A stretch of 64,000 bases of DNA, taken from NCBI GenBank assembly GCA_963787125.1, contig CAWBBV010000006.1, positions 220,725 to 284,724 on the forward strand. Direction: 5' to 3'. Positions 22,368 through 41,971 of this stretch are shown here, piece by piece. The first letter of the stretch is position 1; every line of letters begins with the position of its first letter. The notes beneath the pieces were generated by a model. It made no database searches, had not been told where the DNA came from, and was given only the letters and a program-made list of their open reading frames with translations. Both the position numbers and the translations under genes were made by a program. Origin of the DNA: an uncultured delta proteobacterium (GTDB lineage Bacteria > Desulfobacterota > Desulfuromonadia > Geobacterales > DSM-12255).

Positions 22368-22373
22368 TGAAAG

Positions 22374-22584
22374 GAGAAAGGCATATATGTAATTGAGATC
22401 ATTACTTTTATAATTGTGTGCGGTTGTACTTGTGTTGAGGAAAAGTTGTTTATTTGCTGTAGGTTAGATTCACATTCTCGCTGAAAAAGCTCTATATTGC
22501 TTACGAAAGCTATTTTTATAATTCGGGGTAAAAAATGGCTGATTCGGGCTGTTGTGTGTGTTTGCGAAAAACATTTTTATAATT
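22374..22584 (+). promoter_or_regulatory. Putative transposase-binding sites at the left end (22374-94, 22395-415, 22503-23, 22564-84); inverted copy at the right end (41945-65)
   Basis: GAGAAAGGCATATATGTAATT, GAGATCATTACTTTTATAATT, ACGAAAGCTATTTTTATAATT, GCGAAAAACATTTTTATAATT; right end (reverse complement) GCGAAACCCTTTTTTATAATT. Confidence 0.75.
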
Positions 22585-23101
22585 GTGTCGCTGGGAGGGT
22601 TGTAGCGTTTAAAAATCTGCAAATATCATTTAAACGCCCTTTTCATGCCATTTAAAAAGAGATCACACTCGGAGGCTGTCAACAGCGCTCAAGGTGAAGG
22701 AAGTGAGCGCCGTCGAAAATCGAATGCAGAGCCGCTGTTGTCAATGAGCAGGGAACAAAAGACGCGGGGAGCGTGCTAAAACAGCTGAAATAAAGTTAAA
22801 TCAGCGCGAATGCTGCGCTCTAATACAAGAGTTTGCTTTTATAAGCTGATTTTATTTGTACCGGAACCATATATCTTCGGGCAAAGCATACATGCTTTTT
22901 GATATTCAGACGTTGCGGATGCATATTCCGGAGGAATCCGACCATGATTCCGGCGTGAAACCGACCGCTATTCCGATTTGAAACCGACCAACATTCCGCT
23001 GGCAATCCGACCAGCGTTCCGGAATGAATCCGACCAACAGTTTGTAGTCGCAAGGTAACTCAACAGCGTATTGTACCCCTCATTTATTTGAGGAGGTCAC
23101 A

Positions 23102-24643
23102 ATGCCGCAGAATCGAGTTACTATGCGTAAAATCCGAGAGATACTCCGTCTTGCCTGGTCTTGCAATCAGACCAGACAATCCATTTCCGACAGTTGCGGT
23201 ATCGGCAAGACAACCGTCACCGATACTCTATACCGGGCTTCTGCTGCCGGTCTGTCCTATCCCTTGCCAGCCGACCTCGATGATGAACGGCTGGAACGCC
23301 TTCTCTATCCTCAACATCCTCGTGCCATAACCAGTAGGCGGACACCTCCCGACTGGGCATCCCTGCATAACGAACTACTCTCCCACAAGAACCTGACGCT
23401 GATGCTTCTATGGCAAGAGTATAAGGAACGGGAGCCATCCGGTTACCAGTACAGTCAGTTCTGTGACCTGTTCCGGTTCTGGCGTGGCAAACTCGACCTG
23501 TCCATGCGTCAGGAACATCGTGCCGGCGAGAAGATGTTCGTGGACTACTGTGGTCAGACTATTCCGATTGTTGACTCGAGCACCGGAGAGATACGTGACG
23601 CTCAGGTGTTTGTTGCGGTCATGGGAGCCAGCAACTACACCTATGCCGAAACCACATGGAGCCAGTCCCTTGCTGATTGGACTGGTTCACATGTCAGAAC
23701 ATTCTCCTACTTCGGTGCCGTTCCTCATTGTCTCGTTCCAGATAATTTACTGTCTGGTGTCACCAAGACCTGCCGATATGAACCTGGCATCAATGTCACC
23801 TATCAGGAAATGGCGACTCATTACGGCACCGCTGTTGTTCCCGCCCGTGTCCGCAAACCACGAGACAAGCCCAAGGTAGAAGCCGGTGTCCAGTTCGTGC
23901 AGCGGTTCATCCTTGCCGGTTTACGACATCACACCTTCTTCAGTCTGGCAGAAGCGAATGCTGCCATCAAAGAACGGCTGGAACTTCTGAACAACCGTCC
24001 CTTCAGGAAACTTCCCGGTACCCGCAAGAGTCGGTTCGAGGAACTTGACCGTCCGGCAATGCTGCCACTGCCGGAACTCCCTTACCAGTATGCCCAATGG
24101 AAGATTGCCAGAGTGCACATTGATTACCATGTCGATGTGGAAGGGCATTTCTACAGTGTGCCGTACAGACTGGTACGGGAACAGGTCGATGTTCGCTACA
24201 CGTCTGCTACTGTGGAGTGTTTCCATAAGGGAAATCGTATCGCCTCGCATCCTCGCTCGTTTGTAAAAGGGAAACACACCACTGACCCCGAGCATATGCC
24301 AACAGCCCACCGGGAGTATGCTGAGTGGACTCCGGAACGCCTCGTCACCTGGGCATCCCAGACCGGCAAGGCAACGGCGGCGGTTGTAGAATCCATTCTC
24401 TCCAGAAGAGCCTATGCGGAACATGGCTTTCGTTCCTGTATGGGAATCATCTCCCTTGGTAAAAAGTTCGGCAAGGAACGACTGGAAGCAGCCTGTGAAC
24501 GTGCCCTGTTCATAAAAGGGATTAGTTACGCCAGCATCAAGTCGATTCTGAATAATAACCTTGACCAGAAACCTCTCCCCAAACAACAGGAACTGCTGAC
24601 CGTTACCCACGATAACATTCGTGGTACGGATTATTACGGATGA
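23102..24643 (+). CDS. istA: IS21 transposase IstA
   Basis: AGEKMFVDY, VPDNL, KPRDKPKVE DDE residues; YSVPY. Confidence 0.95.
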   Translation: MPQNRVTMRKIREILRLAWSCNQTRQSISDSCGIGKTTVTDTLYRASAAGLSYPLPADLDDERLERLLYPQHPRAITSRRTPPDWASLHNELLSHKNLTLMLLWQEYKEREPSGYQYSQFCDLFRFWRGKLDLSMRQEHRAGEKMFVDYCGQTIPIVDSSTGEIRDAQVFVAVMGASNYTYAETTWSQSLADWTGSHVRTFSYFGAVPHCLVPDNLLSGVTKTCRYEPGINVTYQEMATHYGTAVVPARVRKPRDKPKVEAGVQFVQRFILAGLRHHTFFSLAEANAAIKERLELLNNRPFRKLPGTRKSRFEELDRPAMLPLPELPYQYAQWKIARVHIDYHVDVEGHFYSVPYRLVREQVDVRYTSATVECFHKGNRIASHPRSFVKGKHTTDPEHMPTAHREYAEWTPERLVTWASQTGKATAAVVESILSRRAYAEHGFRSCMGIISLGKKFGKERLEAACERALFIKGISYASIKSILNNNLDQKPLPKQQELLTVTHDNIRGTDYYG

Positions 24644-24656
24644 ACAAAGGAACCCC

Positions 24657-25391
24657 ATGCTGACACAACCGACCATCGAGAAACTCAAAGTAATGAAGCT
24701 CACCGCTATGGCTCAGGCATTCACTGAGCAGATGCAACGTCCCGACATGGCGTCCCTCACCTTTGAGGAACGCTTTGGTCTGCTTGTAGACCACCAGATG
24801 ACAGAACTGGAGAACCGTAGGATGCAGAATCGACTGAGAACTGCCAAGCTACGCCTGTCGGCATCAATCGAAGACTTGGACTTCAGAGATGCACGAGGTA
24901 TGAACCGGTCACAGGTAATGTCCCTTGCCCAGAATCAGTGGGTGCGAAGCCATCAGAATATCCTCATCACCGGACCAACCGGAGCTGGCAAGAGTTATCT
25001 CGCCTGTGCACTGGCACAGAAGGCGTGCCGGGATGGACACACAACTCTCTACCAGAGACTGCCACGATTGCTTCAGGACATCTCCATTGCCCGCCACGAT
25101 GGTCGCTATCAGAAACTTATGGCTCAGGTGACCAAGTGCGAGGTGCTGGTGCTTGATGACCTGCTCATTTCGCCGCTCTCGCAGGATGACCAGCGGGAAC
25201 TGCTGGAAATCGTCGAGGAACGTTACGACCGGAAAGCGACTATTGTTACCAGTCAGTTACCCATTAAGGCTTGGCACGATGCCATGCAAGACCCAACGCT
25301 GGCTGACGCTATTCTGGATAGGCTGGTGCATAATGCCTACAAGGTCGAGCTGAAGGGTGAATCTATGCGGAAGCGACGGACAATTACTTGA
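24657..25391 (+). CDS. istB: IS21 helper ATPase IstB
   Basis: GPTGAGKS, LVLDD, TSQLP, ADAILDRLVH, GESMR. Confidence 0.95.
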   Translation: MLTQPTIEKLKVMKLTAMAQAFTEQMQRPDMASLTFEERFGLLVDHQMTELENRRMQNRLRTAKLRLSASIEDLDFRDARGMNRSQVMSLAQNQWVRSHQNILITGPTGAGKSYLACALAQKACRDGHTTLYQRLPRLLQDISIARHDGRYQKLMAQVTKCEVLVLDDLLISPLSQDDQRELLEIVEERYDRKATIVTSQLPIKAWHDAMQDPTLADAILDRLVHNAYKVELKGESMRKRRTIT

Positions 25392-25474
25392 CCGAAACAG
25401 TAGATATGTGACAATTTAACATGAATGCTATAATTGCTATTACAAACCATAATAAACCTGACTAACGGAGCAAG

Positions 25475-26239
25475 ATGACTATGAATAAATTTTTTCTGGT
25501 TATTTTCACCATATTACTTACTTCCCCTTGTTATGCTTTTGCTGGGAATGAAAGGATTAATCGATTCGAAGTAGAAGCCGGTGTCCTTGGAACCAAAAAC
25601 ATGGAAATTCATGGATACAAGCAAGAAAATGCGACTTCGGACTGGGACGCAATTGAGCCAACCGCACGTTTTGAATTCTGGTCGGTCAAAAAGGATGGGT
25701 GGAATTTTGGAGGCGTCTTACAACCTCTATATGCTCATTACTCTGATACGCTTACTAATGACCTCAATTTTAAAGGCACAGTATATCATGCAGGACAGCA
25801 TGGAACCCTTGACTATCAATTTCATTCAGCTCGGGCAACAGCAAACTATCCCGTGCTTTCATCAGATATTACCGGCAACTACCTTCGGCTTGGAGGGTCA
25901 GTCATCGCACGTTATGCTGATTTAAACTTTAAAACTACGTCGGATTCATTTCATGACACAAACTTTATTGTATTCCCATTGTTCAATATTGAAGGGGAAG
26001 CTGCAATTACGTCAAATCATAGTTTCTTCACTCGGGCTGACTTTTTACCATCGCCTTCTGGCAATGTATTTTTGGACGGTCTCTTTGATGTCTTTATTGG
26101 GGTAAAAACACATCTTAAGTCAGGTAACTCAGTAGATGCAGGCATTCGATTGTTTTTTGGCGGGTATGACCCAAATAAAGCAGACGAATATGCAAATAAA
26201 ATATTTTTCAACGCCGCAGTTATCAGATACTCATGGTGA
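25475..26239 (+). CDS. Exported protein, probable outer-membrane beta-barrel (IS passenger)
   Basis: Signal peptide; alternating hydrophobic beta-strand pattern; C-terminal aromatic residue (...IRYSW); inside the IS21 inverted repeats. Confidence 0.65.
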   Translation: MTMNKFFLVIFTILLTSPCYAFAGNERINRFEVEAGVLGTKNMEIHGYKQENATSDWDAIEPTARFEFWSVKKDGWNFGGVLQPLYAHYSDTLTNDLNFKGTVYHAGQHGTLDYQFHSARATANYPVLSSDITGNYLRLGGSVIARYADLNFKTTSDSFHDTNFIVFPLFNIEGEAAITSNHSFFTRADFLPSPSGNVFLDGLFDVFIGVKTHLKSGNSVDAGIRLFFGGYDPNKADEYANKIFFNAAVIRYSW

Positions 26240-27021
26240 CGATTCGGCATTAAGCTACAGACTGTGACACCCCATACCTTGCGACTATAACTCCACTTGG
26301 TCGCTTTCGCCGGAACGCTGGTCGGATTCACAGCGGAACACCGGTCGCCATCACGTCAGTTTCCTTGGTCGGATTCACCGGAATACGCAGCGGAGTCGTC
26401 TTTATCTTCTTTCAAGTATAACTCCGCTAAATCGTAATGATAATCTGCCAAATGCCGTTCAACCATTTCAAAGCAGTTGCCGCCCATTCCTTCGATATCT
26501 TTCTTGATGTAGTCGTATGCCCTGGGACTCTTAACAACAGAGTCAACTTGAGGTAAGAACCGTTCAAACAGGGCTATAAGGTCGTTTCGGTCTTTAGCTC
26601 GTGTGTTGTATTCTGCAACCTTGGGATAAAGGAGAAACGCCGGGGCGTGGTCTGGATCAGCAGCCAGGCAGTTATCAAGCAAGGGGTAAATCCTTCTCTT
26701 GAACTCAGCCTGAAGGCGGATACGTTCCGCCGCGTCAATAGTAGTCTGCTGCGTTGTCCCGTCCGGCGCTCTTGTTGTCTGGTAGGTGTCGGTAATGATA
26801 GCCATAAGTTCTTTATCTCTGCGAACAGATAAAGGCACATCTGAAGGTGCTTGATAAGGGAAATCGTAAAGGCACTGAGCAAGATCTTTTGCTACCTGGA
26901 AATAGGAATCGCTTGATATTGCAACTGGAGCGGCCACCGACTGCTGTTCAGCGTCAACCGGCCCTTTTACCGGTTGTGGTGTCGGTTTTAAACCTTTCAG
27001 AAAGTCAAAGAATCCCATAAA

Positions 27022-27561
27022 TTACACTTTCACGCGTCTGATAAATACTGAATCCATCAACCGGCCATAATCACCCTGGGATAACTTTATTTTTCTTCCA
27101 TCAATCATTAATTCACCATTTTCAAGGTTGTTTTCAAGATACATAAAGACTGAAAACATATCCTTTATTTCCTGCATTGCCGGGAGATCGACGCGCGATT
27201 CAGATATCAATCCGGCAATGTCAAAAGCAGCGTGAGCATATATATTGGCTATCTTTGAATCAACTTTACCAGCTGATTCAATGGCTGCCTGGATAACAGG
27301 AACAAACAGCTCATCATGTCCTATTTCAGATAGACGTTTACCACCACTACTTCCCCGCGCCATTTCGCCTTCACCAGCTAGTAGCCATGCTGGGTTTATA
27401 TGTGGGAATGCAGCAAGTATCTTGTTCAGATCGTCAACGTCCGGCGTCCTTTGGGCTCTTTCCCACCGTCCGATAGTATTCAAATGCACCCCTACCTTTT
27501 CGGCAAAAGCATCTTGACGCATAACACCACGAACGTTTTTTATCCTCTCGCCTATACCCAT
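27022..27561 (-). CDS. XRE/Cro-type HTH repressor (Mu c position)
   Basis: IGERIKNVRG..RQDAFAEKVGVH.NTI.RWER...P...INPAWLL.GEG; divergent from ner. Confidence 0.85.
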   Translation of the reverse strand: MGIGERIKNVRGVMRQDAFAEKVGVHLNTIGRWERAQRTPDVDDLNKILAAFPHINPAWLLAGEGEMARGSSGGKRLSEIGHDELFVPVIQAAIESAGKVDSKIANIYAHAAFDIAGLISESRVDLPAMQEIKDMFSVFMYLENNLENGELMIDGRKIKLSQGDYGRLMDSVFIRRVKV

Positions 27562-27765
27562 TTTGTAACCACCAGAAACCCAAAAAGGTTGTTGATCTCA
27601 CGCGGAGAAGTTACAACCATTTCAAAAAAGGTTGTAACTGTTTATATCTACTTGAAACATAACAAGTAATTTATAATATTTGTCACTTAGGCAGAAAACA
27701 ACACTAACAACCCATTTTAATTTTATTTATTGACAATGTACCCGTTTGGGTTTATTTTCACGGGC
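27562..27765. promoter_or_regulatory. Divergent repressor/early promoter-operator region
   Basis: Inverted repeat GTTACAACC...GGTTGTAAC (~27610-27638); TTGACA at 27730; AT-rich. Confidence 0.55.
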
Positions 27766-28068
27766 ATGATGTTGACAACGGACAAATTAAAAGAAACACG
27801 CGTTTTAAGAGCGTGGGTATTGTTCAGGCTCGCAGAGAAGGGATTGACCTTTACTGCCTTGGCAGATCGTTACGGAGCAGGCCGGGAACTCCCCTCAAAA
27901 GTGTTTACCAGTCCCCATTATCCAAAATGGGAAAAGATCATTGCTGACGCAATCCTGATGATGCCTGAAGAGATTTGGCCTGAACGATATAAAGAGCGGG
28001 CCGACCGCAAATCAAAGCAACTACTGCGTAAGGCTAAATCTACAAGAAAAGAGCGGGGGGCGCAATGA
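27766..28068 (+). CDS. ner: Ner/Nlp-family DNA-binding protein
   Basis: KGLTFTALA...YPKWEKIIADAI...PEEIWPERY. Confidence 0.85.
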   Translation: MMLTTDKLKETRVLRAWVLFRLAEKGLTFTALADRYGAGRELPSKVFTSPHYPKWEKIIADAILMMPEEIWPERYKERADRKSKQLLRKAKSTRKERGAQ

Positions 28069-28538
28069 CTAAGAGCAAACAAAGTTTAGTTCCCGACCCG
28101 GCGCAAATGTCCCTATTTGACAGCATAAAACAGGATCAGGCCGAACGGATCGAAAAGAAACCGGGGCGTATGTGTGTAACCCACCGACTGCATGCTGCTT
28201 ACAAGGCGGCGATCAAGGGCGCGTCAAAGTCCCGTGAGCAGATAGCTGATGACATGTCGGAACTGTCATGCCGCAAGGTCACAGTATCCATGATTAACAA
28301 CTGGCTTGCTGACAGCCACCCCCACGAAATGACATGCGACTTGATAGACGCATTCTGCGAAGCAACCGGAGATAACAGGCCGCTCCTAGTACTGACAGAC
28401 ACATACGGCATACACACTATCGAAGCGCCGGACAAAATCCGCGCCCGCCTGCAAAAGCTTGAAGAGCAAAAGAAGGAGCTGGACAAGGAAAAACACCGCT
28501 ACGCCTCATTACTGCATGAATTGGAGCGTAAACCATGA
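28065..28538 (+). CDS. Phage early regulatory protein
   Basis: SREQIADDMSELS...VSMINNWLA...AFCEATG; ATGA-coupled to ner. Confidence 0.65.
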   Translation: MTKSKQSLVPDPAQMSLFDSIKQDQAERIEKKPGRMCVTHRLHAAYKAAIKGASKSREQIADDMSELSCRKVTVSMINNWLADSHPHEMTCDLIDAFCEATGDNRPLLVLTDTYGIHTIEAPDKIRARLQKLEEQKKELDKEKHRYASLLHELERKP

Positions 28539-28726
28539 TGGGATTTCCGGCCATACCTTTCAAACTCTGTGATTTTTGGGCAATCCATAGCGAGACTTGG
28601 AACGGTGACACGCTGACAGTATCCGGCCTACTGCCAGGCAATACAGCAGCGGTTGCCACTTTCATGAGACAAGCAACGTCAAAAGGCAGTTGGCTTGCTG
28701 CTACCCTGGAAGGCCACAAACAATGA
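28535..28726 (+). CDS. Small hypothetical protein
   Basis: ATGA overlaps on both sides. Confidence 0.5.
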   Translation: MMGFPAIPFKLCDFWAIHSETWNGDTLTVSGLLPGNTAAVATFMRQATSKGSWLAATLEGHKQ

Positions 28727-30861
28727 AGCTGTCTCCAGTTCATGCCGAATTTCACGCCGCTGTCTACGAATATGAAAACCGCCTGCCGGTCTATGCCCTC
28801 TCAATTATAGAAATTGCTGAACATCTTGAATTATCACAGCAACTAATTGACAAGCAGCAAAAAAAATTCAACTGGCAACCGACCGGCGAACGTGTTCAAG
28901 GCGGGGGCGATAAGTACAATATCGACTTAATCAGGTTCTACAAGTCAAACGAAAAACACGCCGCCGCCCTGGAGAAGATAAAGAGCAAAATCAGAGATGA
29001 GAAAATAGCCCTTGAGCAAGATCAGGAAGCCGCCGCCATAGCTACCCGCCTTGCTAAGATCAAAGAGCAGATACGCATTGACCGGTTGTCTGAAGCTGAA
29101 GAAGAGATGAATCACGATGACCGTGAATGGCTCTGGAACCAGATGGGGAAGAAAGGCACGAAGCAACAGGACAAGGCTATCATGAGAAGCATGGCCGTGG
29201 CCAAAGTTAAGAGTCTTCTTGCTGCCGGAGAATGGGAGCGGCACGCAATAGAGCAGGTTGCCAAAGAGATTGGAGTTCATGAGCAGAGCGTACGTGGTTG
29301 GGTGAGAAAAACCAAAGATTGCCACCCCTCTGACCGCGCCGCAGTACTGGTAAATCAGATACAAGGCAAAGGTGAAGAGGCTGAATTTACCTTTGAAGCC
29401 TGGGAAGCCTTTAAAAAAGACTATCTCCGCAAGAAGAGCCCTTCTTACTCTTCATGTTACCGCCGCTTGCAAGCCGCCGCCGTTCTTAACGGCTGGACAA
29501 TCCCCACAAAAAAGACGGTTGAAAACTGGATTAAACGCAAAGTTGACGTAATGGTTATCAAATTCAGGCGTGAAGGGATGGAGGCCGTTGAAAAGTGCTT
29601 TCCGGCGATGAAGAGAAACAAAGACATGTTTGACGTAATGCAGGCGGTGAACGGTGACGGCTTCGCCCTGGGGATATGGGCCGATTTCGGCAACGGCACT
29701 ATAGTCAAGCCGATTGTCTGGAGCTGGCAGGATATCCGCTCTTCAAAGGTTCTCGCCTGGAGAATGGATATAAGCGAAAACCGTGAGCTTGTCAGACTGG
29801 CAACTCTTGACCTAATAACCGATTGGGGCATACCTGAATTTATGTATCTGGATAATACGCGGGCGGCTACTTCCAAGCAGATCAGCGGCGGCCTGCCGAA
29901 TCGTTACCGCTTCAAGGTCAAGGATGATGACCCGTTAGGAATCATGCCGCTACTCGGGATTGATCTGAAATACACCCTGCCAGGGCACGGGCAAAGTAAA
30001 CCTGTTGAGAGAGTTCACGGCATAGGCGGTTATCTGGACTTTGACACACTGCCGGTGTTTGAAGGCAGGGGCACAAAAGGCCGTCCCGTGCCGATTTCCG
30101 AAGTTGAAGAGCTGTTTAAAAACTTCGTCAACGAGATCAACGCCCGTCCGGATCGGCGCGGAGATTCAGTCAAAGGCAAAAGCTTTGACCAGGTATTCAG
30201 TGGACTGTATCCGGGGGCAATCATTACCAAGGCAACTGAAAAGCAGCGTAAATTCTGCCTTTCAGTTGCTGAAGTAGTCACGGTAAGCCGCACGAATGCA
30301 GAAATTACCCTGAAAGCTGGCAGGTCTGATGGTGGCGAGAATCGTTACTGGAATAACGAGCTTATAGCACGCATGGGGCAAAAGGTAACAGTACGGTTTG
30401 ACCCGGCGAATCTCCATAGTCCGGTTTATGTCGAGACCATAAGCGGAGTTGAAATCTGTACTGCCGCGCCGTCCATTACCGGAGGCTTTAAAGATGCTGC
30501 CGCCGCCCGTGAACATGCCAGGAACAAGGGCCACTTCAAGAAGCATGTCAAGCTTGCTGCTGAAGCGATTGGCAGAAATGACCTTGCTGAAGCACGGCGC
30601 TATATGGGGACAGTACCGGAGCCGGAGAAACCGCGAGCGAAAGTAACCCGGCTTGCTGCCAATGTACCGACAAAGGGCAAGGCTACCACGGATCAGGATA
30701 GCGGAGCTGTTGAGACACCTGCCTGTAAGACGCTACAGGAGTTGTTCCCGATTAAGAAAGTGGTGAACGGTAGTGATTGCGAACATGACGCGGAAAGCGT
30801 TGCTGCATTGTGGCATAAGGGCGCTGCAAAGCTTTATGGGAAGAAAAGTGTGCTGTCATAA
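28723..30861 (+). CDS. MuA-like DDE transposase
   Basis: FKKDYLR...SCYRRL; NGDG (D), YLDNTRA (D), QSKPVER (E); VRFDP C-terminal domain. Confidence 0.92.
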   Translation: MKLSPVHAEFHAAVYEYENRLPVYALSIIEIAEHLELSQQLIDKQQKKFNWQPTGERVQGGGDKYNIDLIRFYKSNEKHAAALEKIKSKIRDEKIALEQDQEAAAIATRLAKIKEQIRIDRLSEAEEEMNHDDREWLWNQMGKKGTKQQDKAIMRSMAVAKVKSLLAAGEWERHAIEQVAKEIGVHEQSVRGWVRKTKDCHPSDRAAVLVNQIQGKGEEAEFTFEAWEAFKKDYLRKKSPSYSSCYRRLQAAAVLNGWTIPTKKTVENWIKRKVDVMVIKFRREGMEAVEKCFPAMKRNKDMFDVMQAVNGDGFALGIWADFGNGTIVKPIVWSWQDIRSSKVLAWRMDISENRELVRLATLDLITDWGIPEFMYLDNTRAATSKQISGGLPNRYRFKVKDDDPLGIMPLLGIDLKYTLPGHGQSKPVERVHGIGGYLDFDTLPVFEGRGTKGRPVPISEVEELFKNFVNEINARPDRRGDSVKGKSFDQVFSGLYPGAIITKATEKQRKFCLSVAEVVTVSRTNAEITLKAGRSDGGENRYWNNELIARMGQKVTVRFDPANLHSPVYVETISGVEICTAAPSITGGFKDAAAAREHARNKGHFKKHVKLAAEAIGRNDLAEARRYMGTVPEPEKPRAKVTRLAANVPTKGKATTDQDSGAVETPACKTLQELFPIKKVVNGSDCEHDAESVAALWHKGAAKLYGKKSVLS

Positions 30862-30936: not shown

Positions 30937-31896
30937 ATGAGTGAAAATGTTGCAAGAATGTTTGAAGAATTATCGGATGCAAGCGAACTGAGAGTCCGCG
31001 TAAGCGACATTATCAGCGAAACCGGCACGACACAGGGGAAGATTGCCAAGGAAACCGGCATTTCTCCTACCGCCCTTTCACAGTGGCTGCAAGAGAAGTA
31101 CAAGGGAGACAATGCCGAGGTTGAAAGCAAGCTCCTGAAATGGCTTGCAGCCAGGGAGCGCCGCACAGTTGCCGGTGAGACCATGCCCGCCGCTGCTGAT
31201 TATGTGGCGACACCTGCCGGAGAGCGTATCAAGGGGGTTTTGAGCTACGCACAGGCCGCCGCTGATTTGGCTGTCATTTATGGTGGGGCCGGAGTGGGCA
31301 AAACCCGCGCAATCAAGAGCTATGCCGCTTCAAGTCCTAATGTGTGGGTCGCTACCATGCGACCGGATACCGCTTGTGTTGCTTCGTGCCTGGAAGAGAT
31401 CGGCGAGTCCGTAGGGCTGAAAATGGCGAGCCGCGCCGCGCGCCAATCGCGGGATTTGACTCACAAATTTGCAGGAACCGGCGGGCTGTTGGTAGTGGAT
31501 GAAGCACAACACCTGAACATTGCCGCCATCGAAGCAATTCGTTCAATTTATGACGTTACCGGAATCGGCCTTGTCTTTTGCGGGAATGAATCGGTTTACG
31601 TCAGGATGACAGGAGGGAGCCGGGCCGCCACCTTTGCACAACTCTTCAGCCGGATCGGCAAGCGGTTAAGGTTGTCACAACCAAGTCAGGCAGATGTAAC
31701 CGCCCTTGCTGACGCTTTTGGAGTGAACGGCACGGCAGAGCGTCAGGCGCTTATAGAGATCAGTCAGAGGCCGGGGGCGCTTCGTTCTGTGGTTAAGGTA
31801 ATTCGCTTTGCTGCTGTTATGGCTGCTGGCAATGGTGAAGGTGTCAATCTTCATTATATTTCGACGGCCTGGAAAGAGTTGGGGGGGGAAGCATGA
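30937..31896 (+). CDS. MuB-like AAA ATPase
   Basis: N-terminal HTH; GGAGVGKT; VVDEAQHL; AQLFSRIG; PGALRSV. Confidence 0.93.
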   Translation: MSENVARMFEELSDASELRVRVSDIISETGTTQGKIAKETGISPTALSQWLQEKYKGDNAEVESKLLKWLAARERRTVAGETMPAAADYVATPAGERIKGVLSYAQAAADLAVIYGGAGVGKTRAIKSYAASSPNVWVATMRPDTACVASCLEEIGESVGLKMASRAARQSRDLTHKFAGTGGLLVVDEAQHLNIAAIEAIRSIYDVTGIGLVFCGNESVYVRMTGGSRAATFAQLFSRIGKRLRLSQPSQADVTALADAFGVNGTAERQALIEISQRPGALRSVVKVIRFAAVMAAGNGEGVNLHYISTAWKELGGEA

Positions 31897-32141: not shown

Positions 32142-33958
32142 TGTCAAAAGTTTCATGAAAAGCCGGGATATTGAAATGGAAAGTACTCGAAAGTAAACGA
32201 TGCCCTTCATCTGCATCTTTTCCGAGTCTGTCCAGACTGTGACTTCACTACTTTGTGGTTACTGGCTTGAATTTTGGGCAAGCCACTCTGTGACCAGGCA
32301 CGTGAGATAGTTGGTCAGATTAAAACAACAATCAGTAAATTGATCTTTGAAGACGGGAAGTCAGGCAGCTAGCGAGAGGATCTTGGTCCATCTAGCCTGA
32401 ATGGTCGGCAGTGCCTTCAACTCCTGCAAAGGCACCGGTGGTAGATATTTTAGCGACATGTGAGGCCTGAGGAAGTTGTAGTGGGTCACAAACAGCGTAG
32501 TTAAAGATACCGCACCGTTTGTGCTGTTGAATCCTGCTGCTGGCCTTACATGATACTTGAAGGTTCTGTTGAGCCGCTCAACGAGCTGCTTGAAGGATCT
32601 GTACTCTTCGGACTCGGCATCAAGGTTTTGGAGGCCAATAACCTTTTTGTGCTGAATCGTCTGGGAATCATCAGTCTGGGCATTGATGAAATGAATGCCA
32701 GCTGGATAAGAAGGGTTTCCGTCGCTGACAAGGGTTATTTGCTGATCGGCAGAAGCAGTCCTGATGGCTTCATTCATAGCGATAATGGCAGGCTGAGTGC
32801 CCCTGTTATCGGCCACGTGATAGGCGGAGATTTTCAGGTTCTTTGCCGAGATAAAAAAGAAGACATAATGGTGCTTGCCCAGGATCTTGATGTAGGTCTC
32901 ATCACCTGCAGAGATATTATCGATATGGCCTTTATGCTTGAGATTGAATCGGTGGCAGTGCCAGGCGGCGCCAGCGGCATAATTGAGAACTGTCTGATGA
33001 GAAACCTTGATACAGAAGACTTCGCGCAGGATTTGAGCAGTTTTTCTGGCCGGAACGGCGAATGAAACATAGAAAGTCAGAATCAGGCCAAGCACGTTTT
33101 CGCTGTTATGGATTCTCGCCAGTTCGACCGGCGGTTTGTCCGGAGAAGAGAGTTCCAACTCTTCCGGTTTGTAGTGATATTCGCGGTACTGGTAGTTGAT
33201 TTTGAACTGAGAACTTTTCTTTTTCATCAGCTCTTTCTCGGCTTTATTGAGCTTGGCAAGCGCCTGGATACGGTGAGGACAGTTATCATTTGGGCACTTG
33301 TGGATGGTCACTTCCTTTTGCGACTTCCACCTGAAGAGAGCCAGCCCGCAATGGGGACAGAAGAGCTTTGACTTTCTGTTGGTTCTGAAGCGCTGTTGGA
33401 GTTGGAAGAGTTGAGAGCAAACCTTGCAGAGAACTTGAGAGCGCTTCTTTCCGTCGTTGAAGTAGAGATAAGTATTTGGCGCTCCGCAGCAGGGACAGGT
33501 GACATGCACTGGAACCGGTGATGAACCCGCCCGGAGCTTGACCGGAGCAAGAGACTTTCCGTGAAGTGTTTCGTACTCAATCAGGAGTTGCCGGTAGTCT
33601 TTTTGATCGAGGTCTTTTTTTTAAACTTTGGGGGCTCAGTCAGTGGCGGCTTGGGATCGACAATAAAGTTTCTGTAGTTCGGATGTTTCTCTTTGAAATC
33701 GTCCTTTGGCTTAACTTCAGGATTACGATTTTCGAGGACATCTGACAACCCGACGACGATCTGTTCAATCTCGGTCTTTGTAAACTTGGAGCAAATCCAG
33801 ACAACAAACCGGGCAGTTTTGGATAGGTACGACATGAGCTAGCCCTCCATAACTGGCATTCTTAACCAGAATCACGGGGGGAGGCAAGACTTTGATTGGT
33901 AATGCATTGAAATTAGAACTGAAAAGCAAAAAGACATGTCAAGAAGTTTGACACAACG
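32137..33958 (-). mobile_element. IS element with a DDE (IS6/IS240-like) transposase
   Basis: Ends GATAGTGTCAAA / TTTGACACAACG; flanking direct repeat CATGAGAG (32129-36, 33959-66; 9 bp if the G is included). Confidence 0.85.
32361..33835 (-). CDS. DDE transposase encoded in two frames (33835-33581 and ~33614-32361), joined by a -1 shift at A AAA AAG
   Basis: Zinc-finger CPCCG/CKVC/CPHC; GDETYIKI, VSDGNPSY, QLVERLNRTFK; the -1 frame is open from the A8 run at 33615-33622. Confidence 0.8.
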
Positions 33959-34186: not shown

Positions 34187-34678
34187 ATGGCACAAAAAGC
34201 ACACAAGCAGGCCGGGCCACCGATAAGCGCCGCACAGATCAAGAAGCTTCACACCCTCAAGACCGCGCTGAAGTTTGACAATGAAACCTATCGGGCCGCC
34301 CTGGACAATGCCGCCGGGGTTACTTCTTCCAAGGATTTGACCATACAGCAGGCCGCTGCACTTATAGACGACTGGCAGACAAAGGCCACCGCTGCCGGGG
34401 TCTGGAAGACACGTCAACCGAAAGCGAAAAAGTTTGATGACTTAGAGAACCGCCGTGGAGTGGTAGCCATGGCAACCGTTCCACAAATGCGAATGATTGA
34501 AGCTATATGGGGTGAAGTCAGCAGAGCCACAGAACCGGAGGCAAGAGCCACCGGTCTTCGGCACTTCATCAAACGGATTGCCAAGGTCGATAGTCTTCGC
34601 TTCTTGGATAGAGAAGGAGCAAGCGCCGTGATTAACGCATTAACCGCTATGCAGAAGAGTAAGGCATCTCATAGTTAA
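34187..34678 (+). CDS. gemA: GemA/DUF1018-family Mu-like protein
   Basis: QIKKLH.LK..L..D.ETYRA.L....GV.SSKDLT...Q...I.AIW...L..FIKR...VINAL..M. Confidence 0.85.
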   Translation: MAQKAHKQAGPPISAAQIKKLHTLKTALKFDNETYRAALDNAAGVTSSKDLTIQQAAALIDDWQTKATAAGVWKTRQPKAKKFDDLENRRGVVAMATVPQMRMIEAIWGEVSRATEPEARATGLRHFIKRIAKVDSLRFLDREGASAVINALTAMQKSKASHS

Positions 34679-35027: not shown

Positions 35028-35201
35028 ATGTTCAGTTTTGAAGAGTACGTAATGTTTCAGGCACTAAGTGATTCCATGAAAAAAGCGCTTGCAGAAAAGT
35101 TTGCAGCAAAACGAATACCTTCTGAAGAGGCCAAAATTATTAAACAGATGGGAACCTCTTATGTAGATGCATGGGCACAAAAGCAGATTGACACTATGTA
35201 A
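35028..35201 (+). CDS. Small hypothetical protein (57 aa)
   Basis: GGAGGT RBS; MFSFEEYVMFQALSDSMKK...; stop abuts the hammerhead ribozyme. Confidence 0.6.
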   Translation: MFSFEEYVMFQALSDSMKKALAEKFAAKRIPSEEAKIIKQMGTSYVDAWAQKQIDTM

Positions 35202-35202
35202 A

Positions 35203-35272
35203 CGCGAAACCGGCGGGCAACATGCCGCCGGTCTGCCGGGAATGGCCGCCCGGCACTGATGAGCGAGGCCGT
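35203..35272 (+). ncRNA. Type II hammerhead ribozyme with pseudoknot
   Basis: CGC-GAAA-C CGGCGG(loop)CCGCCG GUC^ UGCCGGG(AAUGGCCG)CCCGGCA CUGAUGA GCG A GGCCGU; all core nucleotides and stems I-III present; predicted cleavage after C35233. Confidence 0.9.
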
Positions 35273-35285
35273 AAGGGGAATCAAT

Positions 35286-35513
35286 ATGGGCGAATTATGG
35301 AAAGAGCAAGTGACTGTATCTGAAGGAATATGGCTTAACGTTCTTCAACACGCGACACAAAGCGAAATTGAAACCTTTGTGTCGCTCCTGGAGAAGAACG
35401 GACTGAAAATCATAGAAGTCGAGAAGTACAACCGTGTGATGGAATTGGTTGATCGTTCAATAGAAGAAATTGAGGCGCTGGAGTACCGGATCAAGACTCT
35501 TACAGAGCAATAA
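35286..35513 (+). CDS. Hypothetical protein
   Basis: AAGGGG RBS right after the ribozyme; ATG at 35286. Confidence 0.6.
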   Translation: MGELWKEQVTVSEGIWLNVLQHATQSEIETFVSLLEKNGLKIIEVEKYNRVMELVDRSIEEIEALEYRIKTLTEQ

Positions 35514-35539: not shown

Positions 35540-36292
35540 GTGCCGTTTCAAACTGCATTAATACAAGCCACTGCCCTAAGCCCACATGTTGATTATGATT
35601 CATGGCTATCAGCAAATACCGCCTATTGCCAGCGCCACCGCTGTAGCCTGACAATTGCCGATTGCGACAAACAAAAGGCAGAAAGCGCCGGTCATTTTAG
35701 TGATTTACGCTGTCAAGGCTGCGGCGGTCTGGATAATCAGCCGGAAGTTACTGACCATATTGGCACTTTTGGGGTAGTGACTCCGCGTCGGTTGCAGCTC
35801 GTCAAGCAGCAATCCGTTGAAATTATACTGCCGGTTCTTACCGAAAAAGAAGAGTTGCCTCCGGAGACCGCCGCGCAGATCAGCGAGCAGGCAACGGCGG
35901 AAACCTGCCTTGACCTGGAATGTTTGCATAACCTGGACTGTTGCGAAAGCTCCTTTGACCTTGCCGCAATCAGCGCACTAACCGGGGATAATGGCGAGCT
36001 TGCAAAAGAGCTGCAAATTCTCTTTATGGGTGAAGATGAAGAGGTTGAGACCAAAGAAGAGATAGCCGCTCTATACAAAAAGACAAGTAATCGGGCCAGA
36101 ATAATAAAACTCTTCGCAGTGTATCAAGGCCGCTGCATCCGTTGTGGTGGATACATGGATAACACCAGGGAGGAAGGAACTGACGAAAAATGGGATGATG
36201 ATGTTTATCGCTGCCTTGCTTGTGGATGGCGCACAAGCCCGGCCTATGCCTGGAATCGCGAGAACCCTGCTGTAGCAGGATGGAGGGGCTAA
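35540..36292 (+). CDS. Hypothetical Cys-rich protein with C-terminal zinc ribbon
   Basis: C..H.C, C..C, CIRCGG...CLACGW. Confidence 0.65.
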   Translation: MPFQTALIQATALSPHVDYDSWLSANTAYCQRHRCSLTIADCDKQKAESAGHFSDLRCQGCGGLDNQPEVTDHIGTFGVVTPRRLQLVKQQSVEIILPVLTEKEELPPETAAQISEQATAETCLDLECLHNLDCCESSFDLAAISALTGDNGELAKELQILFMGEDEEVETKEEIAALYKKTSNRARIIKLFAVYQGRCIRCGGYMDNTREEGTDEKWDDDVYRCLACGWRTSPAYAWNRENPAVAGWRG

Positions 36293-36293
36293 G

Positions 36294-36698
36294 ATGGTAG
36301 ACCAACAGGATTCAACCAGTAAACAGCATGAAGAGGGCCGGGACAATTTACAGCTGGGAATAATGGTAATCATTATCAGAGTTCTGACCGGCAAGGGAGT
36401 TAATAACGCCGCTGCTGTCAGGATTGCTATGGATATTATCAAGGAGCTTACAGCTACTTACGGAGGACATTCGATATATCTTCCAAAACAGGATGCAGTA
36501 AAGCATGCCGAAAAAGCCGCCTCAATACTGGCAGAGTTCAATGGTAAGAATCACGCCGCTCTTGCAGAGAAGCATGAGCTTTCAAGTCGGCAGATTTACA
36601 ATATCGTCGGACGGAAAAAAGACAAGAAACCGGAAAAGCCGGATGTTGCCGGATTAGCAGCACTTCTAAAAAGCAGACAAGGAACGGGGCATTCATGA
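36294..36698 (+). CDS. mor: Mor-family transcription activator
   Basis: YGGHSIYLPK...I.AEFNGKNHAALAEKHELSSRQIYNIV. Confidence 0.88.
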   Translation: MVDQQDSTSKQHEEGRDNLQLGIMVIIIRVLTGKGVNNAAAVRIAMDIIKELTATYGGHSIYLPKQDAVKHAEKAASILAEFNGKNHAALAEKHELSSRQIYNIVGRKKDKKPEKPDVAGLAALLKSRQGTGHS

Positions 36699-36916
36699 TG
36701 GATAAAGTTAAAGGCTTGACTGCTGAGGACTTAAGAGTTTGTGAAGTTATGGGAATGAACCCGCACACTCTCATTGAGGCGTACGGAGCGGAAATAGCCT
36801 GCAACTCTGCGCCGTCTTCGCTTGAAAAGATGACGCCGCAAGCTGTCAATACAGCAAAGCGACAGCTTTCTGTAGCCATTGGGCCGTCAATATGGATACC
36901 GCTGACAGCAAGATAA
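36695..36916 (+). CDS. Small hypothetical protein
   Basis: ATGA overlap with mor; LTAEDLRVCEVMGM resembles the C-terminal motif of Mu-like protease/scaffold proteins (weak). Confidence 0.5.
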   Translation: MMDKVKGLTAEDLRVCEVMGMNPHTLIEAYGAEIACNSAPSSLEKMTPQAVNTAKRQLSVAIGPSIWIPLTAR

Positions 36917-36934: not shown

Positions 36935-38791
36935 ATGGCAGACATGAAACTTTTTATCGAATTAATGGCACGTTCAACCGGCCTTAAACGCGAACTTAAC
37001 GACTCCGAAAGAGGATTCAAGCAGTTTGGCAATGTTGTCGGAAAGGAGATGGCGAGAATCGGTCAGTTTTCCGGCTCACTCCAGGGGAAGCTTGCCGGTT
37101 TGGGGGTGACAATAGGAGTTTTACAGCAGTTTAGAATATCTGCTCAGCTTGATAAAGATCTTACCCAGATAGGCCAAACTGCTGGAGCTGGCTCTAAGAT
37201 GGTTACGCTGTTACGTTCTGACCTTTTTCGCATGGGCAAAGATAGCGGTCAAGACCTTGAGAGCCTGAAAAACGGGTTTGATTCACTGGTTCAATCAGGT
37301 CTGAATATGCGTGAAGCAACTGCTACACTGGATGGAATCAACATTGCTATGGCTGTCACCGGTGCAAAAGCTGAAACTCTTTCCAGTGCGCTGACGGTTG
37401 GCGGGACACACTTCGGCTTTGATTTAGCTAAGCCGGGGCAGGCGCTGACAATGTTGGATAAAATGACTGTTGCAGGGAGACTTGGAAATGCTGAGCTTGG
37501 TACGCTGTCAGCTACCTTTTCTCGTGTAGGTGTCAGCGCAAAAGCAGCTGGTATGTCTTATGACAAGACGCTGGCTTTTATCGAAGCGCTGTCTTTGGCT
37601 GAGAAAAACCCCGAGCGACTGGGAACGCTGGCAACCAGTTCCCTCCGGGTGTTTACCGACGGGCGTTATATGATGAAGGCTCAGCAGGGGCTGGGGATGA
37701 GCAACCTGTTTTTTGATAAAAAAGGCGCACGCCGTGATGTCATGGATGTTTTTACAGATATCCAAAAGAAATATAAGACGCTAAAAACTGACCGTGAACG
37801 GGCTGGCTTCATTCATAAAGCCTTTGGTGAAATGGACACTGAGACGAAAACCGGTGTTCAGCTGATGTTGGATGGAAAGAGCCTTGATAAGGCGCGTGAA
37901 TTTCTTGGGATTATTGATAAGGCCGGGGGCACACTAAAAAAAGATTTCAATGCAGCGACCATGAATCTTATTACACAAGGCGGCCGACTTAAGAACACCA
38001 TGCGTGATGCTGCTGATAGCTTCATCCAGCCAATTAATAAAGTAATGGCCGAATGGTTACAATTCATGCTGGACAAGAAAGAGGACGGCGGCTTAGGGCT
38101 ATCTGGCAAGCAGATTGCTGGGGGCGCGGCAGGCATAATCGGCGGAACCTATGTTCTTTCCAAGGTCGGAAATAAAATCCTTGGGGATTGGGCAAAGAAA
38201 AAGGTCGGTGGGTTGAGCGGCAGCACCGCTGTGGGGGTGGCTGAAGGCAAGATCCTTCAGGCCGCCGCCGGCGTTACCCCTGTATATGTTACCAACGCGG
38301 CTGACATAGCCGGTTCGTTTAATGTCCTGCAACAGGGGGCCGGTGCTGTCGCAATGTCATCACCGGCTGTTGCAGCAGTTCCGGCACTTTTCACGGGTGG
38401 CATTGGTTATGCCTCAATGGAAACAGGGAAATATTTGGCACGGGAAGAAGCTAGCTGGCGTAGCAACGCTGACTTGGCAAGAATACGTTCTCAGCACATG
38501 GTCATGGGGGGAGGGGGGAATTCATTCCAGGTGCAGGCTATTGACGAAGAAATAGGAAAGCGTTGGAGATCAACCTTCGACGATTCCCGCAAAATATCTC
38601 CTTTTGATAGAGAGGGTGCTGGTCATCGTCCGGCAAGAGCAAATACAAATAATAACATTAATGTTGAAGTGCACTTTGATGAACTCGCACGGGCATTCAC
38701 TAAAGTCAACAGCATGGATACAGGTGTTAACGTAAAGAGTGGTGGCAGAGGCGATTTCTTTGAAGCTCTAACCAGTACAAAGAGCATGTAA
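36935..38791 (+). CDS. Phage tail tape measure protein (TP901-type core)
   Basis: Ala/Gly/Leu-rich helical protein; LDKMTVAGRLGNAEL..L...F.RVG; GVTPVYVTN motif. Confidence 0.82.
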   Translation: MADMKLFIELMARSTGLKRELNDSERGFKQFGNVVGKEMARIGQFSGSLQGKLAGLGVTIGVLQQFRISAQLDKDLTQIGQTAGAGSKMVTLLRSDLFRMGKDSGQDLESLKNGFDSLVQSGLNMREATATLDGINIAMAVTGAKAETLSSALTVGGTHFGFDLAKPGQALTMLDKMTVAGRLGNAELGTLSATFSRVGVSAKAAGMSYDKTLAFIEALSLAEKNPERLGTLATSSLRVFTDGRYMMKAQQGLGMSNLFFDKKGARRDVMDVFTDIQKKYKTLKTDRERAGFIHKAFGEMDTETKTGVQLMLDGKSLDKAREFLGIIDKAGGTLKKDFNAATMNLITQGGRLKNTMRDAADSFIQPINKVMAEWLQFMLDKKEDGGLGLSGKQIAGGAAGIIGGTYVLSKVGNKILGDWAKKKVGGLSGSTAVGVAEGKILQAAAGVTPVYVTNAADIAGSFNVLQQGAGAVAMSSPAVAAVPALFTGGIGYASMETGKYLAREEASWRSNADLARIRSQHMVMGGGGNSFQVQAIDEEIGKRWRSTFDDSRKISPFDREGAGHRPARANTNNNINVEVHFDELARAFTKVNSMDTGVNVKSGGRGDFFEALTSTKSM

Positions 38792-38854: not shown

Positions 38855-39550
38855 ATGTCAGTAATCACAAGTAAGAAAGCGTTAAAGGAAGTCCTTGAAT
38901 GTCAAGTTTCTCTTGAAGGGGTAAACACGGATAAGGTGAACATGAAAGAGGCAATTCTGTTGCAGCAGCAAAAGCTTGATTCTGCTGAGGTATGCAAAAA
39001 GAAACTTGCTCTGTTAATGGAAAAGCGCCGGGGCTTATTGGCTGACGCCGCCTTGGGGAATGGCAACAATATAGAGCTTGCCGCGCTTAATGCCGAAATT
39101 GAAGTAAACAAGGCGAATACGGTTGATAGCGACTTGTTGATTGTTGCTGAAACCATAGCGGGATTAACCGCAAAACTTAACGCTGTATCCACTGTCCAGG
39201 AAGAACTGCAACGCAAGAAATCAGCACTTATTGCTACGCTACTGTTGGCCGAGGCTGAAGAACTGGGAGCGGTTTACATTGAGGATATGAACCGCCTTGC
39301 TGCTACTCACCGTCAACTATTGGTTAATAATGCCCTCTTGAAGCAGGCTGGTGGTGCCGGGATAGTTCCGGAATCAAGTGTCAGAATTGATGTCCCGCTT
39401 TTCAGACTTGAAGCTCACAAGGGGCTTGAAATTGGAGATATCCCCGGTAAAGTCAGGATCAACAGCCAGGCGCAGTATTCCGATACACTTATTTCTGCTG
39501 AGATAGCCGAGAGTAAGCAGCGGTTAAATCAATGGGGGGTTTGTTGGTAG
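38855..39550 (+). CDS. Hypothetical coiled-coil protein
   Basis: GGAGG RBS; heptad-rich 231-aa ORF. Confidence 0.65.
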   Translation: MSVITSKKALKEVLECQVSLEGVNTDKVNMKEAILLQQQKLDSAEVCKKKLALLMEKRRGLLADAALGNGNNIELAALNAEIEVNKANTVDSDLLIVAETIAGLTAKLNAVSTVQEELQRKKSALIATLLLAEAEELGAVYIEDMNRLAATHRQLLVNNALLKQAGGAGIVPESSVRIDVPLFRLEAHKGLEIGDIPGKVRINSQAQYSDTLISAEIAESKQRLNQWGVCW

Positions 39551-39560
39551 CAGGTAAGTT

Positions 39561-39597: not shown

Positions 39598-39619
39598 CAT
39601 ATGTTAACAGGGGGTAGAT

Positions 39620-40123
39620 ATGTCGGGGAAACTGGATAAGATTATAGAGATTATCGGTATTGAGCTTGCTGCTAAACTCTGTCATGACTTCGCAGGCAAA
39701 CAGATACGCATAAAGAAATTAGAGTCAAAAATAGGCACATTCCAGGCGGTTATTGACAGTATAGGGATTAATGCCGCCAACCTGTTGCAAAAGGAAATAA
39801 CCGGACTTGTATATATTCCGAACTTAACAGCTGAGCTTGGCAAGCAGAGACGACAAGAAATTATTGAAAATTATCGGGGTGAAAGGATTGAGGATTATGC
39901 TCTTATAGTAGGGCTGACCTCCCGCCGGGTATATCAATTATTTAAGGAGACAGGGGTTAAACTCCCAGATAAGCCACTACGAAAGAAGCTGATTATTGAT
40001 GACTACAAGGGTGAGACGGCAAGAGAGTATGCGGATAAACACGGGATTAATATAAGGTCTGCCCGAGCAAGGTTGAAGTCAAACGGTATAATACCTTGTA
40101 GCGGGTTGCGACAGGTAAAATGA
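39620..40123 (+). CDS. Second Mor/C-like regulator with duplicated modules
   Basis: IIGIELAAKLCHDFAGKQIRI and IGINAANLLQKEITGLVYIP, plus two Y.GE...YA...G...R HTH-like units. Confidence 0.6.
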   Translation: MSGKLDKIIEIIGIELAAKLCHDFAGKQIRIKKLESKIGTFQAVIDSIGINAANLLQKEITGLVYIPNLTAELGKQRRQEIIENYRGERIEDYALIVGLTSRRVYQLFKETGVKLPDKPLRKKLIIDDYKGETAREYADKHGINIRSARARLKSNGIIPCSGLRQVK

Positions 40124-40139
40124 CCAGGTCAAATAAATC

Positions 40140-41756
40140 TTGCTGCTTTGTGCTGGGGGTAACTTTTTGACTATTAAATATGCTGGCACGTTGGCCCTGA
40201 TTCAGGGGGAGCCGGAATTTAACCGGGTTAGAGCCATGAAGCGCTTTTTGCTCCTGAAGGATTTTGAAGATAATTTCCTACAGAAGTATAAATTAGAGTC
40301 ATGCCGAAAAGTTTCTCTTACAACTGCGCGGAAAGCTTATTGTGAGCAAAGATCCCTTTCATATACGACATTTCTGCATTGGTCGGTAGCCTATCGAAAA
40401 CGTGGCATCAAGGGGCTTTTACCGAAATACGGGAGGACACTGAATCCATCAAAGCGCCCTATCCGGTATCGAAAACAAAAGCTGATGGCAACAATAGCCA
40501 TAGACTTAAACAACCCCCTGAAATGCCTGGAGACGTTGCAGCGAATTATTCAGTGGTGTCGGAAGATTGAACCGGAAGTTAAAAGCAGGACGCTTTCTCT
40601 GTTAAAAAGTTTCTTTGAGGATTCAGTTGCCGATCATCCTTTATCCTTGCGTATCCCTCTTACAGCTGAGGAAATTAAAGCTTTAAAGCGGTATAAAGCC
40701 GGGTTACATAAGAAATATAGTCCAAAAGCGGAAGCCATTCTTTTAATAAATGAAGGCCGTATGCTCCTAGAGGTAATGAACGCAACCAATGTATCGAAAC
40801 GCACAATTTACCTTTGGATGCGTAACTTTAATAAAGACCGTCTCGACTCTATAAAGGTCCGGATCAACGCACCCGAAAGGGAAAGAGTAAAGACAGAGCG
40901 GCAAACGAGAGTTATCGACATCATCCACAAGATGCCCTCGCTTTATGGGATCAATAGAACAACCTGGACATATGGGGCAATTGCTGAGGCGTATGAGAAA
41001 GAATATGGAACCGCTATCTCAAAGGATAAGGTTCAAGGCGTCATTCACAATACCAATTACTGTTGGCGACATGCCAGAAGGGTCTTGACCAGCCCAGATC
41101 CTGAATACAAGACAAAGGTGGAAAGGCTACTGGATGCCCTACAAGGGCTTAAAGAAGGCGAGCGATTCTTTTTCATAGACGAGGTAGGGCCGTACCAGGT
41201 GAAGAAATACGGCGGCAGAATACTGATGCCAAAAGACCAAATTGAAACGCTGCCAGAGTTCCAGAAGAGCCGAGGTAAGATCCAGTTTGTAGCCGCACTG
41301 GAGGCAGTCACAAATCAAATGTTATGGATGTTCACCCCTGACAAGAGCGCCCTTTCCGTGATTGGCTTGATAGAGAAACTGGCTATTGACTATGCTGTTT
41401 CTCCGGCCATATTCATGACGTGGGACGCTATATCAGTACATGGTTCAAAGGTCGTCATGGAATGGATTGCGGCGCACAACGAGGCAGACAAGGGCCCACG
41501 TATCGAGGTTGTTCCTTTGCCCTCAAAGTCGCAGTTCCTGAACGTCATCGAGTCGGTCTTTGGAGGGATGAAAAAGGCAGTGATCTGTAACAGTGACTAT
41601 GCCAGTCTTAACTAAATGCAAGAGGCTATAGCACGCCATTTTGAGGACAGGAACCAGTATTACCTGGAGAATCCCAAACGGGCCGGAAACAAAATATGGG
41701 ACAAGCAAGCTTTCGACTTTGACAAGCTCATAGGTGGGCTTTTCAAGAAGATGTAA
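40140..41756 (+). pseudogene. IS630/Tc1-like DDE transposase with long N-terminal extension and an in-frame TAA at 41613-41615
   Basis: FFFIDE.GP, WDAISVH, LPSKSQFLNVIESVF; the frame continues after the stop as MQEAIARHFEDRNQYYLENPKRAGNKIW. Confidence 0.75.
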
Positions 41757-41971
41757 ACGCCATTTAAATCAGTATTAAGGAGCATGATAGAAGAGATTAA
41801 ACGCCAGGACCGGCACAAGCATAGTAGGAGTAAGAACGATATTAACTACGTTTAAGGGGGTAAAGGCCGCTGACTCACTAGAGTTGTGCCTTTTTTGTAT
41901 TTAGTTGAAATCAAACATATTTTATTATATTTGTGGTTTGCTTAAATTATAAAAAAGGGTTTCGCGCTACA

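Follow-up and report, generated by a model that had tools for sequence, protein, structure and literature searches.

How does an element that carries an intact Mu-type transposase and its partner ATPase, and no recognizable gene for a phage head, come to persist in a bacterial chromosome? The question is raised by a 64,000-nucleotide stretch of DNA from an uncultured delta proteobacterium of the Geobacterales (contig CAWBBV010000006.1, positions 220,725 to 284,724; hereafter, the window), in which a Mu-like element occupies positions 22368-41971. The original prediction, made from the letters of the window, offered two answers, a prophage decayed by deletion or a streamlined transposable satellite that borrows helper virions and supplies its own tape measure and activators. 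We are confident that the element belongs to a real and selected family of headless Mu-like elements, one apparently not described before, and we lean toward regarding it as a transposable phage satellite packaged in helper virions.

The element opens with TG at 22368 and closes with CA at 41970-41971, and its left end (TGAAAGGAGAAAGGCATATATGTAATT) aligns in register with the reverse complement of its right end (TGTAGCGCGAAACCCTTTTTTATAATT), the top-ranked pair in an end scan. It is flanked by a 7-bp target duplication, TTTTGCT, at 22361..22367 on the left and 41972..41978 on the right. Repeated transposase-binding-like motifs follow the TG terminus at 22503 and 22564 in the left end (22368..22600, + strand), and a binding-like motif precedes the CA terminus in the right end (41860..41971, - strand); at ≤1 mismatch, the end motif occurs five times in the 4.2-Mb genome, with three of the occurrences lying in the element's own ends, from which the pattern itself was derived. 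Without two nested insertion sequences (IS), the core measures 14,299 bp. The intact termini, end motifs, and target duplication of the original prediction, together with its estimate of a core of about 14.3 kb, were therefore correct.

Leftmost in the core is a cargo gene without an assigned function (26356..27018, -), located downstream of the repressor and broken at its C-terminus by an IS21-family insertion, with a 74% identical homolog in the related element L060. It is followed by the repressor (27022..27561, -; HTH_3; Pfam and PHROGs), a Ner-like regulator (27730..28068, +; HTH_35; Pfam and PHROGs), a CII-like regulator (28065..28538, +; phrog_2345 and phrog_101), a 63-residue early gene with homologs in relatives (28535..28726, +), an intact MuA-type DDE transposase whose ATG start overlaps the preceding stop (28723..30861, +; Pfam and PHROGs), an intact MuB ATPase (30937..31896, +; Pfam and PHROGs), a small early gene whose final codons are broken by an IS6-like element (31893..32141, +), and GemA (34187..34678, +; Pfam). 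Beyond these lie two small genes of 57 and 84 residues (35028..35513, +), the latter sitting before the zinc protein in most relatives; a two-domain zinc-binding protein, ZnR, that serves as the family marker (35540..36292, +); Mor/C-like activator 1 (36294..36698, +; Pfam and PHROGs); a 73-residue scaffold-tail-like protein with one clear motif copy, compared with 2-4 copies in relatives (36695..36916, +); a full-length, 618-residue tape measure protein of the Mu-like contractile-tail type (36935..38791, +; Pfam and PHROGs); a coiled-coil hairpin protein from a large unnamed family (38855..39550, +); Mor/C-like activator 2 (39620..40123, +; Pfam and PHROGs); and, last, a gene for an IS630-type DDE enzyme with an N-terminal extension (40140..41756, +). 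Five of the six gene junctions examined are ATGA overlaps, in agreement with the tight coupling first noted.

Profile scans (26 open reading frames [ORFs] against Pfam, 21 against PHROGs, and 16 against NCBIfam) gave no match to head, packaging, sheath, tube, baseplate, fibre, lysis, terminase, or portal families, and a promoter scan remained at chance level. The repressor, Ner, MuA, MuB, GemA, two Mor-like activators, and one tape measure of the original prediction were all recovered with Pfam and PHROGs, and the three scans bear out its statement that terminase, portal, capsid, sheath, tube, baseplate, fibre, and lysis genes are missing; in particular, none of the hypothetical ORFs turned out to be a capsid, portal, or terminase gene, an outcome that it had named as counting against its reading. 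Its phrase that the element keeps only a tape measure is slightly too narrow, given the IS630-type, CII-like, zinc-binding, scaffold-tail-like, and coiled-coil genes added here.

With ZnR as a marker, we assembled a set of 32 distinct elements, after dropping duplicate records and five metagenome contigs shorter than 4 kb. None of the 32 matches references for small or large terminase, portal, Mu-type capsid, sheath, tube, major tail protein, spike, wedge, or lysozyme (E 1e-4), and the same packaging, tail, and lysozyme references were matched in all four full-phage controls. In an order-level survey of 239 genomes, full-length ZnR is present in 17 and a Mu portal in 34, the two never share a contig, and full prophages show only the N-terminal half of ZnR. 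Three genes recur, the coiled-coil protein (18/32), the IS630-type gene (16/32), and the scaffold-tail-like protein (13/32), none of which is found in 11 full Mu-like controls when searched with profiles built from family members. Virion genes come in singles, twos, or threes: a tape measure in 15 elements (one by BLAST only), an HK97-type capsid in nine, a Mu-type head protease in seven, a neck protein in four, and a baseplate hub in two, with the tape measures and capsids deriving from unrelated phage types. What the members keep are the ends, the repressor/Ner switch, the transposase, and the ATPase, and their insertion sites are unrelated and show target duplications. At least three transposase types swap across the ZnR tree, eight of the nine capsid carriers form a single ZnR clade (support 98/94), and the members are spread across the families of the order.

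Ends with duplications were located for seven elements, and the six contained in single contigs measure 11.2-14.9 kb without nested IS. The duplications are 7, 6, 7, 7, and 8 bp long in elements with the window's MuA type (the 6-8 bp lengths belong to one MuA clade and were seen in the window's element, L038, L043, L048, and L011/L138) and 5 bp long in two others; none could be located for L044 or L074. By eye, the right ends of L044, L067, and L088 adjoin tRNA-like sequence. Close relatives of the MuA were not found in viral contigs, the best cultured-phage matches to it reach only 35-36%, and neither ZnR nor the coiled-coil protein has a match among 50,697 phage records.

Two pairs of relatives sit at different sites. 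A search of 23 genomes of the taxonomic family yielded a headless sister in another genus (G013), with MuB 97%, MuA 91%, and the IS630-type gene 81% identical to those of the window. Its gene plan includes the repressor, Ner, CII, A, B, the zinc protein, two Mor genes, the scaffold-tail-like gene, the tape measure, and the IS630-type gene, in a partly different order; gemA and the coiled-coil gene are missing. The right end of the sister is found on a second contig, which continues the IS630-type gene; we infer that the two contigs belong together, as a 6-bp duplication also indicates. The sister is inserted at a site unrelated to hsdR, the gene interrupted in the window; the original prediction had proposed a search for its architecture at independent insertion sites. 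The second pair is L044, in a chromosome, and L074, inserted among the early genes of a Mu-like myophage record of 51.5 kb (G440:C1, about 7400-19400), which share 86% DNA identity across 4 kb and an identical late gene order. Separate deletions hardly account for such a likeness at different locations, which points to transposition of the reduced unit. The position of L074 also makes hitch-hiking on a helper genome possible.

The genes of these elements are under purifying selection. Nonsynonymous divergence (dN) is well below synonymous divergence (dS) in each of 13 genes compared pairwise between the window's element and the two relatives closest to it; among 20 gene pairs between reduced elements, dN is 0.10-0.54 in every case, with dS ranging from 0.42 to saturated, and dN/dS is ≤0.34 wherever dS is finite, for tape measures, capsids, proteases, and coiled-coil genes alike. 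The dN/dS calculation on the tape measure that had been suggested at the outset therefore gives a purifying signal in reduced-element pairs. In the window's copy, MuA and MuB are intact, and decay is beginning.

The element can be set against three kinds of known systems. It resembles Mu, B3, and their relatives in its TG...CA ends, target duplication, repressor-Ner-A-B genes, GemA, and Mor/C, and it carries all of TnpA, TnpB, Mor/C, and GemA, which form the transposable-phage marker set in the available text of PMC8705779. It differs in its length (14.3 kb versus 36-39 kb), in having no head, packaging, tail-building, or lysis module, in its family-specific genes, and in its target duplication, which is 7 bp in the window and 6-8 bp in its MuA clade rather than 5-6 bp (5 bp in Mu and 6 bp in B3, according to the same part of PMC8705779). 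With P4, PICI/SaPI, cf-PICI, and PLE, it shares a size range (medians of 10 kb for P4-like elements, 9.5 kb for PICI, and 14 kb for cf-PICI, as given in the accessible portion of PMC10085698) and a combination of regulation, replication, and a few virion-assembly genes, but its scanned ORFs include no tyrosine integrase, primase/replicase, AlpA, or small terminase, and it has DDE transposition for both integration and replication as well as a tape measure gene. In that portion of PMC10085698, integrases count as core genes for every satellite, and the terms "transposase" and "tape measure" have 0 occurrences. In functional terms the element has two features of a satellite, the lack of a full virion module and the retention of assembly-related genes under selection. 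A laboratory mini-Mu consists of the ends plus A and B and is packaged by helper Mu; the window's element likewise has ends, A, and B but is natural and diversified, and selection acts on a late cassette of its own. It resembles a mini-Mu in the way it works and a satellite in the way it is built, and it stands outside both the Mu-like phages and the integrase-based satellite families. We found no description of such a family in the open-access literature searched, and the available sections of PMC8705779, PMC10085698, PMC5644958, PMC10945586, PMC10884400, PMC13626063, and two preprints do not describe such elements. Since the satellite survey is built on an integrase core and searches for transposable prophages use a length of 36-39 kb (PMC8705779, in the text available), elements of this kind fall between both screens.

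The 73-residue protein belongs to a set that repeats a motif resembling the final 25-30 residues of the Mu-type I/Z protease-scaffold: the G013 protein matches Pfam PF10123 at positions 305-330 (E 5e-5) and PHROG 328 at positions 308-337 (E 1e-7), and a hidden Markov model (HMM) of four full-phage scaffold C-termini finds 2-4 copies in seven family proteins. SaPI CpmB, according to the accessible part of PMC5644958, redirects capsid size via a C-terminal motif common to the helper scaffold. The coiled-coil protein is modeled as an elongated hairpin of helices plus a small C-terminal domain (predicted local distance difference test [pLDDT] 85.5) and is a candidate external scaffold; Sid and TcaP are elongated external scaffolds, and capsid homologs are also satellite tools (PMC10945586, in the sections available). 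By analogy, the cassette is suggested to contain counterparts of CpmB, capsid homologs, and Sid/TcaP. ZnR is probably a regulator; its fold was modeled with low confidence (pLDDT 58) and gave only weak zinc-ribbon matches. Clustered at 50%, the coiled-coil family comprises 822 representatives, a number that greatly exceeds that of the elements seen, and related elements probably exist in other groups. Foldseek and VIA searches with the coiled-coil protein returned generic hairpins only. An Atlas lead (0.95) from it to a Psu-bearing cluster with low recognition was unsupported by Pfam, hhalign, and fold searches, and PF07455 was found in 0/239 genomes, in no control, and in 0/16 and 0/132 coiled-coil family members.

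The IS630-type gene, a core gene of the family that was missed in the original prediction, is the last gene of the element, its frame ending 215 bp inside the right end; in the window copy, a premature stop at 41613-41615 truncates the frame 46 codons short of the family's end. It resembles IS630-family IS in matching the NCBIfam IS630 transposase profile above the cut-off and in its catalytic motifs (D, D, and E are all present in 13 of 15 aligned copies), and it differs from them in an N-terminal extension of ~190 residues, in being single-copy in the window's genome, in having no terminal inverted repeats of its own (best 15-mer, 12/15), and in its fixed position as the last gene of a host element. 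Among 14 positive genomes, it lies within a ZnR element in ten, in a remnant in one, and at contig ends in two (one other falls outside this breakdown). A weak PHROG hint that the N-terminus is a MuA end-binding domain was not supported by hhalign, and co-divergence of ZnR and the IS630-type gene was not established (rho 0.23, p 0.06, n = 15). That the enzyme cuts the element out for packaging is speculative.

If the elements are satellites, their cycle might run as follows. A full Mu-like phage would infect or be induced, upon which the element would be derepressed and amplify by replicative transposition, with the Mor-like activators and the zinc protein turning on the late cassette. The helper terminase would fill heads starting at the element's left end, just as the helper packages a laboratory mini-Mu from the left end. 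The scaffold-tail-like and coiled-coil proteins (in other members, the capsid homolog) would push the helper to small heads that fit the element and exclude the 37-40 kb helper genome, the tape measure would enter helper tails, either serving element particles or spoiling those of the helper, and the terminal IS630-type enzyme may, speculatively, excise the element for packaging. We put at roughly even chances the fuller proposal that these satellites insert and copy themselves through Mu-type transposition in place of an integrase and a replicase, that they exchange transposition modules, and that they pick up individual assembly genes (scaffold tail, capsid, protease, tape measure, hub, and neck) from different helpers, with half of the members keeping a domesticated IS630-type nuclease that possibly excises the element for small heads. 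The second answer of the original prediction survives here as a streamlined, selected lineage for which the use of helper virions is plausible; the tape measure on which it centered is just one of several interchangeable virion genes.

A number of observations weigh against packaging in helper virions. The element has no small terminase, and hence no packaging redirection of its own. The window's genome does hold a separate 39.5-kb Mu-like prophage with TG...CA ends and a 5-bp duplication (G000:C1:206667-246122), which has a frameshifted transposase and a non-contractile tail; as no sheath gene was matched anywhere in this genome, the matching helper for the tape measure is not resident, and the resident prophage was set aside as helper because its tail type is wrong. 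Contractile-tailed Mu-like prophages of the right type are present in related genomes. A Mu portal is matched in just 3 of the 17 ZnR genomes. The 32 elements were selected by ZnR, and several end at contig ends. The scaffold-tail HMM missed the window's own shortened 73-residue protein, a reverse HMM missed the full-phage scaffolds, and hhalign of the coiled-coil protein against P4 Psu and Sid gave a probability of <1%. The tape measure (618 residues) is not shorter than its full-phage relatives (582-715 residues), which makes tail shortening less likely than competition with the helper copy or service in particles of the element itself; such shortening is unlikely. In the tape measure tree, the window, its sister, and one full-prophage copy group together (100/98), with the full-phage protein nested between the two reduced ones (89/93 and 83/91), and monophyly of the two reduced tape measures is neither shown nor rejected (p-AU 0.31), so that independent captures are possible. 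In captured genes, some of the purifying signal may also predate capture, from their time in a full phage, a caveat that does not touch the family-specific genes. Finally, the window copy is interrupted by two IS and has a stop codon within its IS630-type gene, and L139 (G219:C6) is a further-deleted remnant with the repressor, Ner, a baseplate hub fragment, and the IS630-type gene. As a side observation, the right end of the resident prophage begins with the same 20 bases as a prophage end that adjoins the family member L067.

Much of this evidence would suit a family of Mu-derived transposons that have ceased to travel in virions and instead move within cells and on plasmids, conjugative elements, and larger prophages, their single virion genes acting as decoys that poison the assembly of invading phages. 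The same conservation evidence would apply to such a defence function, as would the lack of a small terminase and the unrelated phage origins of the tape measures and capsids, and one member does lie inside a full prophage and another beside one; interference with tail assembly as a defence has a precedent in Tab of a Mu-like prophage (PMC10884400, in the text available). We nevertheless consider this explanation unlikely, if worth keeping in view, since the narrow 11-15 kb size, the Ner/CII switch, MuB, and the late-type activators would better fit a timed, helper-coupled cycle, and since members are found across the families of the order. An alternative of a different kind has the same short elements domesticated by their hosts as gene-transfer devices, whose main effect is that adjacent host DNA is packed into helper heads of full size (mini-muduction), the heads not being remodeled. 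From Mu genetics, a short integrated element packaged by the headful mechanism would carry along ~25 kb of host DNA, and no small terminase would be necessary; the patchy presence (17/239 genomes), the varied sites, and the disruption of a host gene speak instead for a selfish element, and the capsid-assembly-like genes would be left unexplained, so that we give this possibility little credence.

About equally improbable, and already largely refuted, is that the elements are chance remnants left by repeated independent deletions of ordinary Mu-like prophages, from the late promoter to the right end. Such an origin would accord with the variation in late content between members, the decay seen in the window and G219, and a tape measure tree that permits separate origins. 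Yet the members hold common genes that are absent from the 11 full controls, and none of the 32 retains a terminase or portal, the first genes of the late operon in annotated full prophages; what is retained consists of entire ORFs drawn from far-apart portions of the late operon as well as from unrelated phages, sister pairs lie at different sites, and capsid carriage tracks the ZnR tree. The window's MuB type is likewise found in seven of the 239 genomes, five times in reduced elements, once in a full prophage (49% identity), and once in an element that ends at a contig end, leaving simple deletion, the first answer of the original prediction, unsupported; the closest relatives are thus not all full-length prophages, the other outcome that it had named as adverse.

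The insertion target is the hsdR gene of a type I restriction system (Pfam T1RH-like_C on each flank), which is additionally frameshifted upstream of the insertion (42884-44620 and 41947-43095). The nested IS21-family element (22920..26389, +) comprises istA (23102-24643), istB (24621-25391), and a passenger ORF (25475-26239), has a 5-bp duplication, and is present in three further genome copies; the 254-residue passenger protein is identical in all four copies and has no Pfam, PHROG, or NCBIfam match. The nested IS6-like element (32137..33958, -; transposase 32361-33509) has an 8-bp duplication and 12 further genome copies.

The 7-8 bp target duplications broaden the known range for MuA-type enzymes, and in this order ZnR elements reach about half the frequency of Mu portals (17 versus 34 of 239 genomes). 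Should the elements prove to be defence transposons, they would amount to a catalogue of natural assembly inhibitors. If they are indeed packaged in helper virions, they would define a satellite life style that is new and would give mini-Mu a natural counterpart that could move host DNA in Geobacter-like bacteria.

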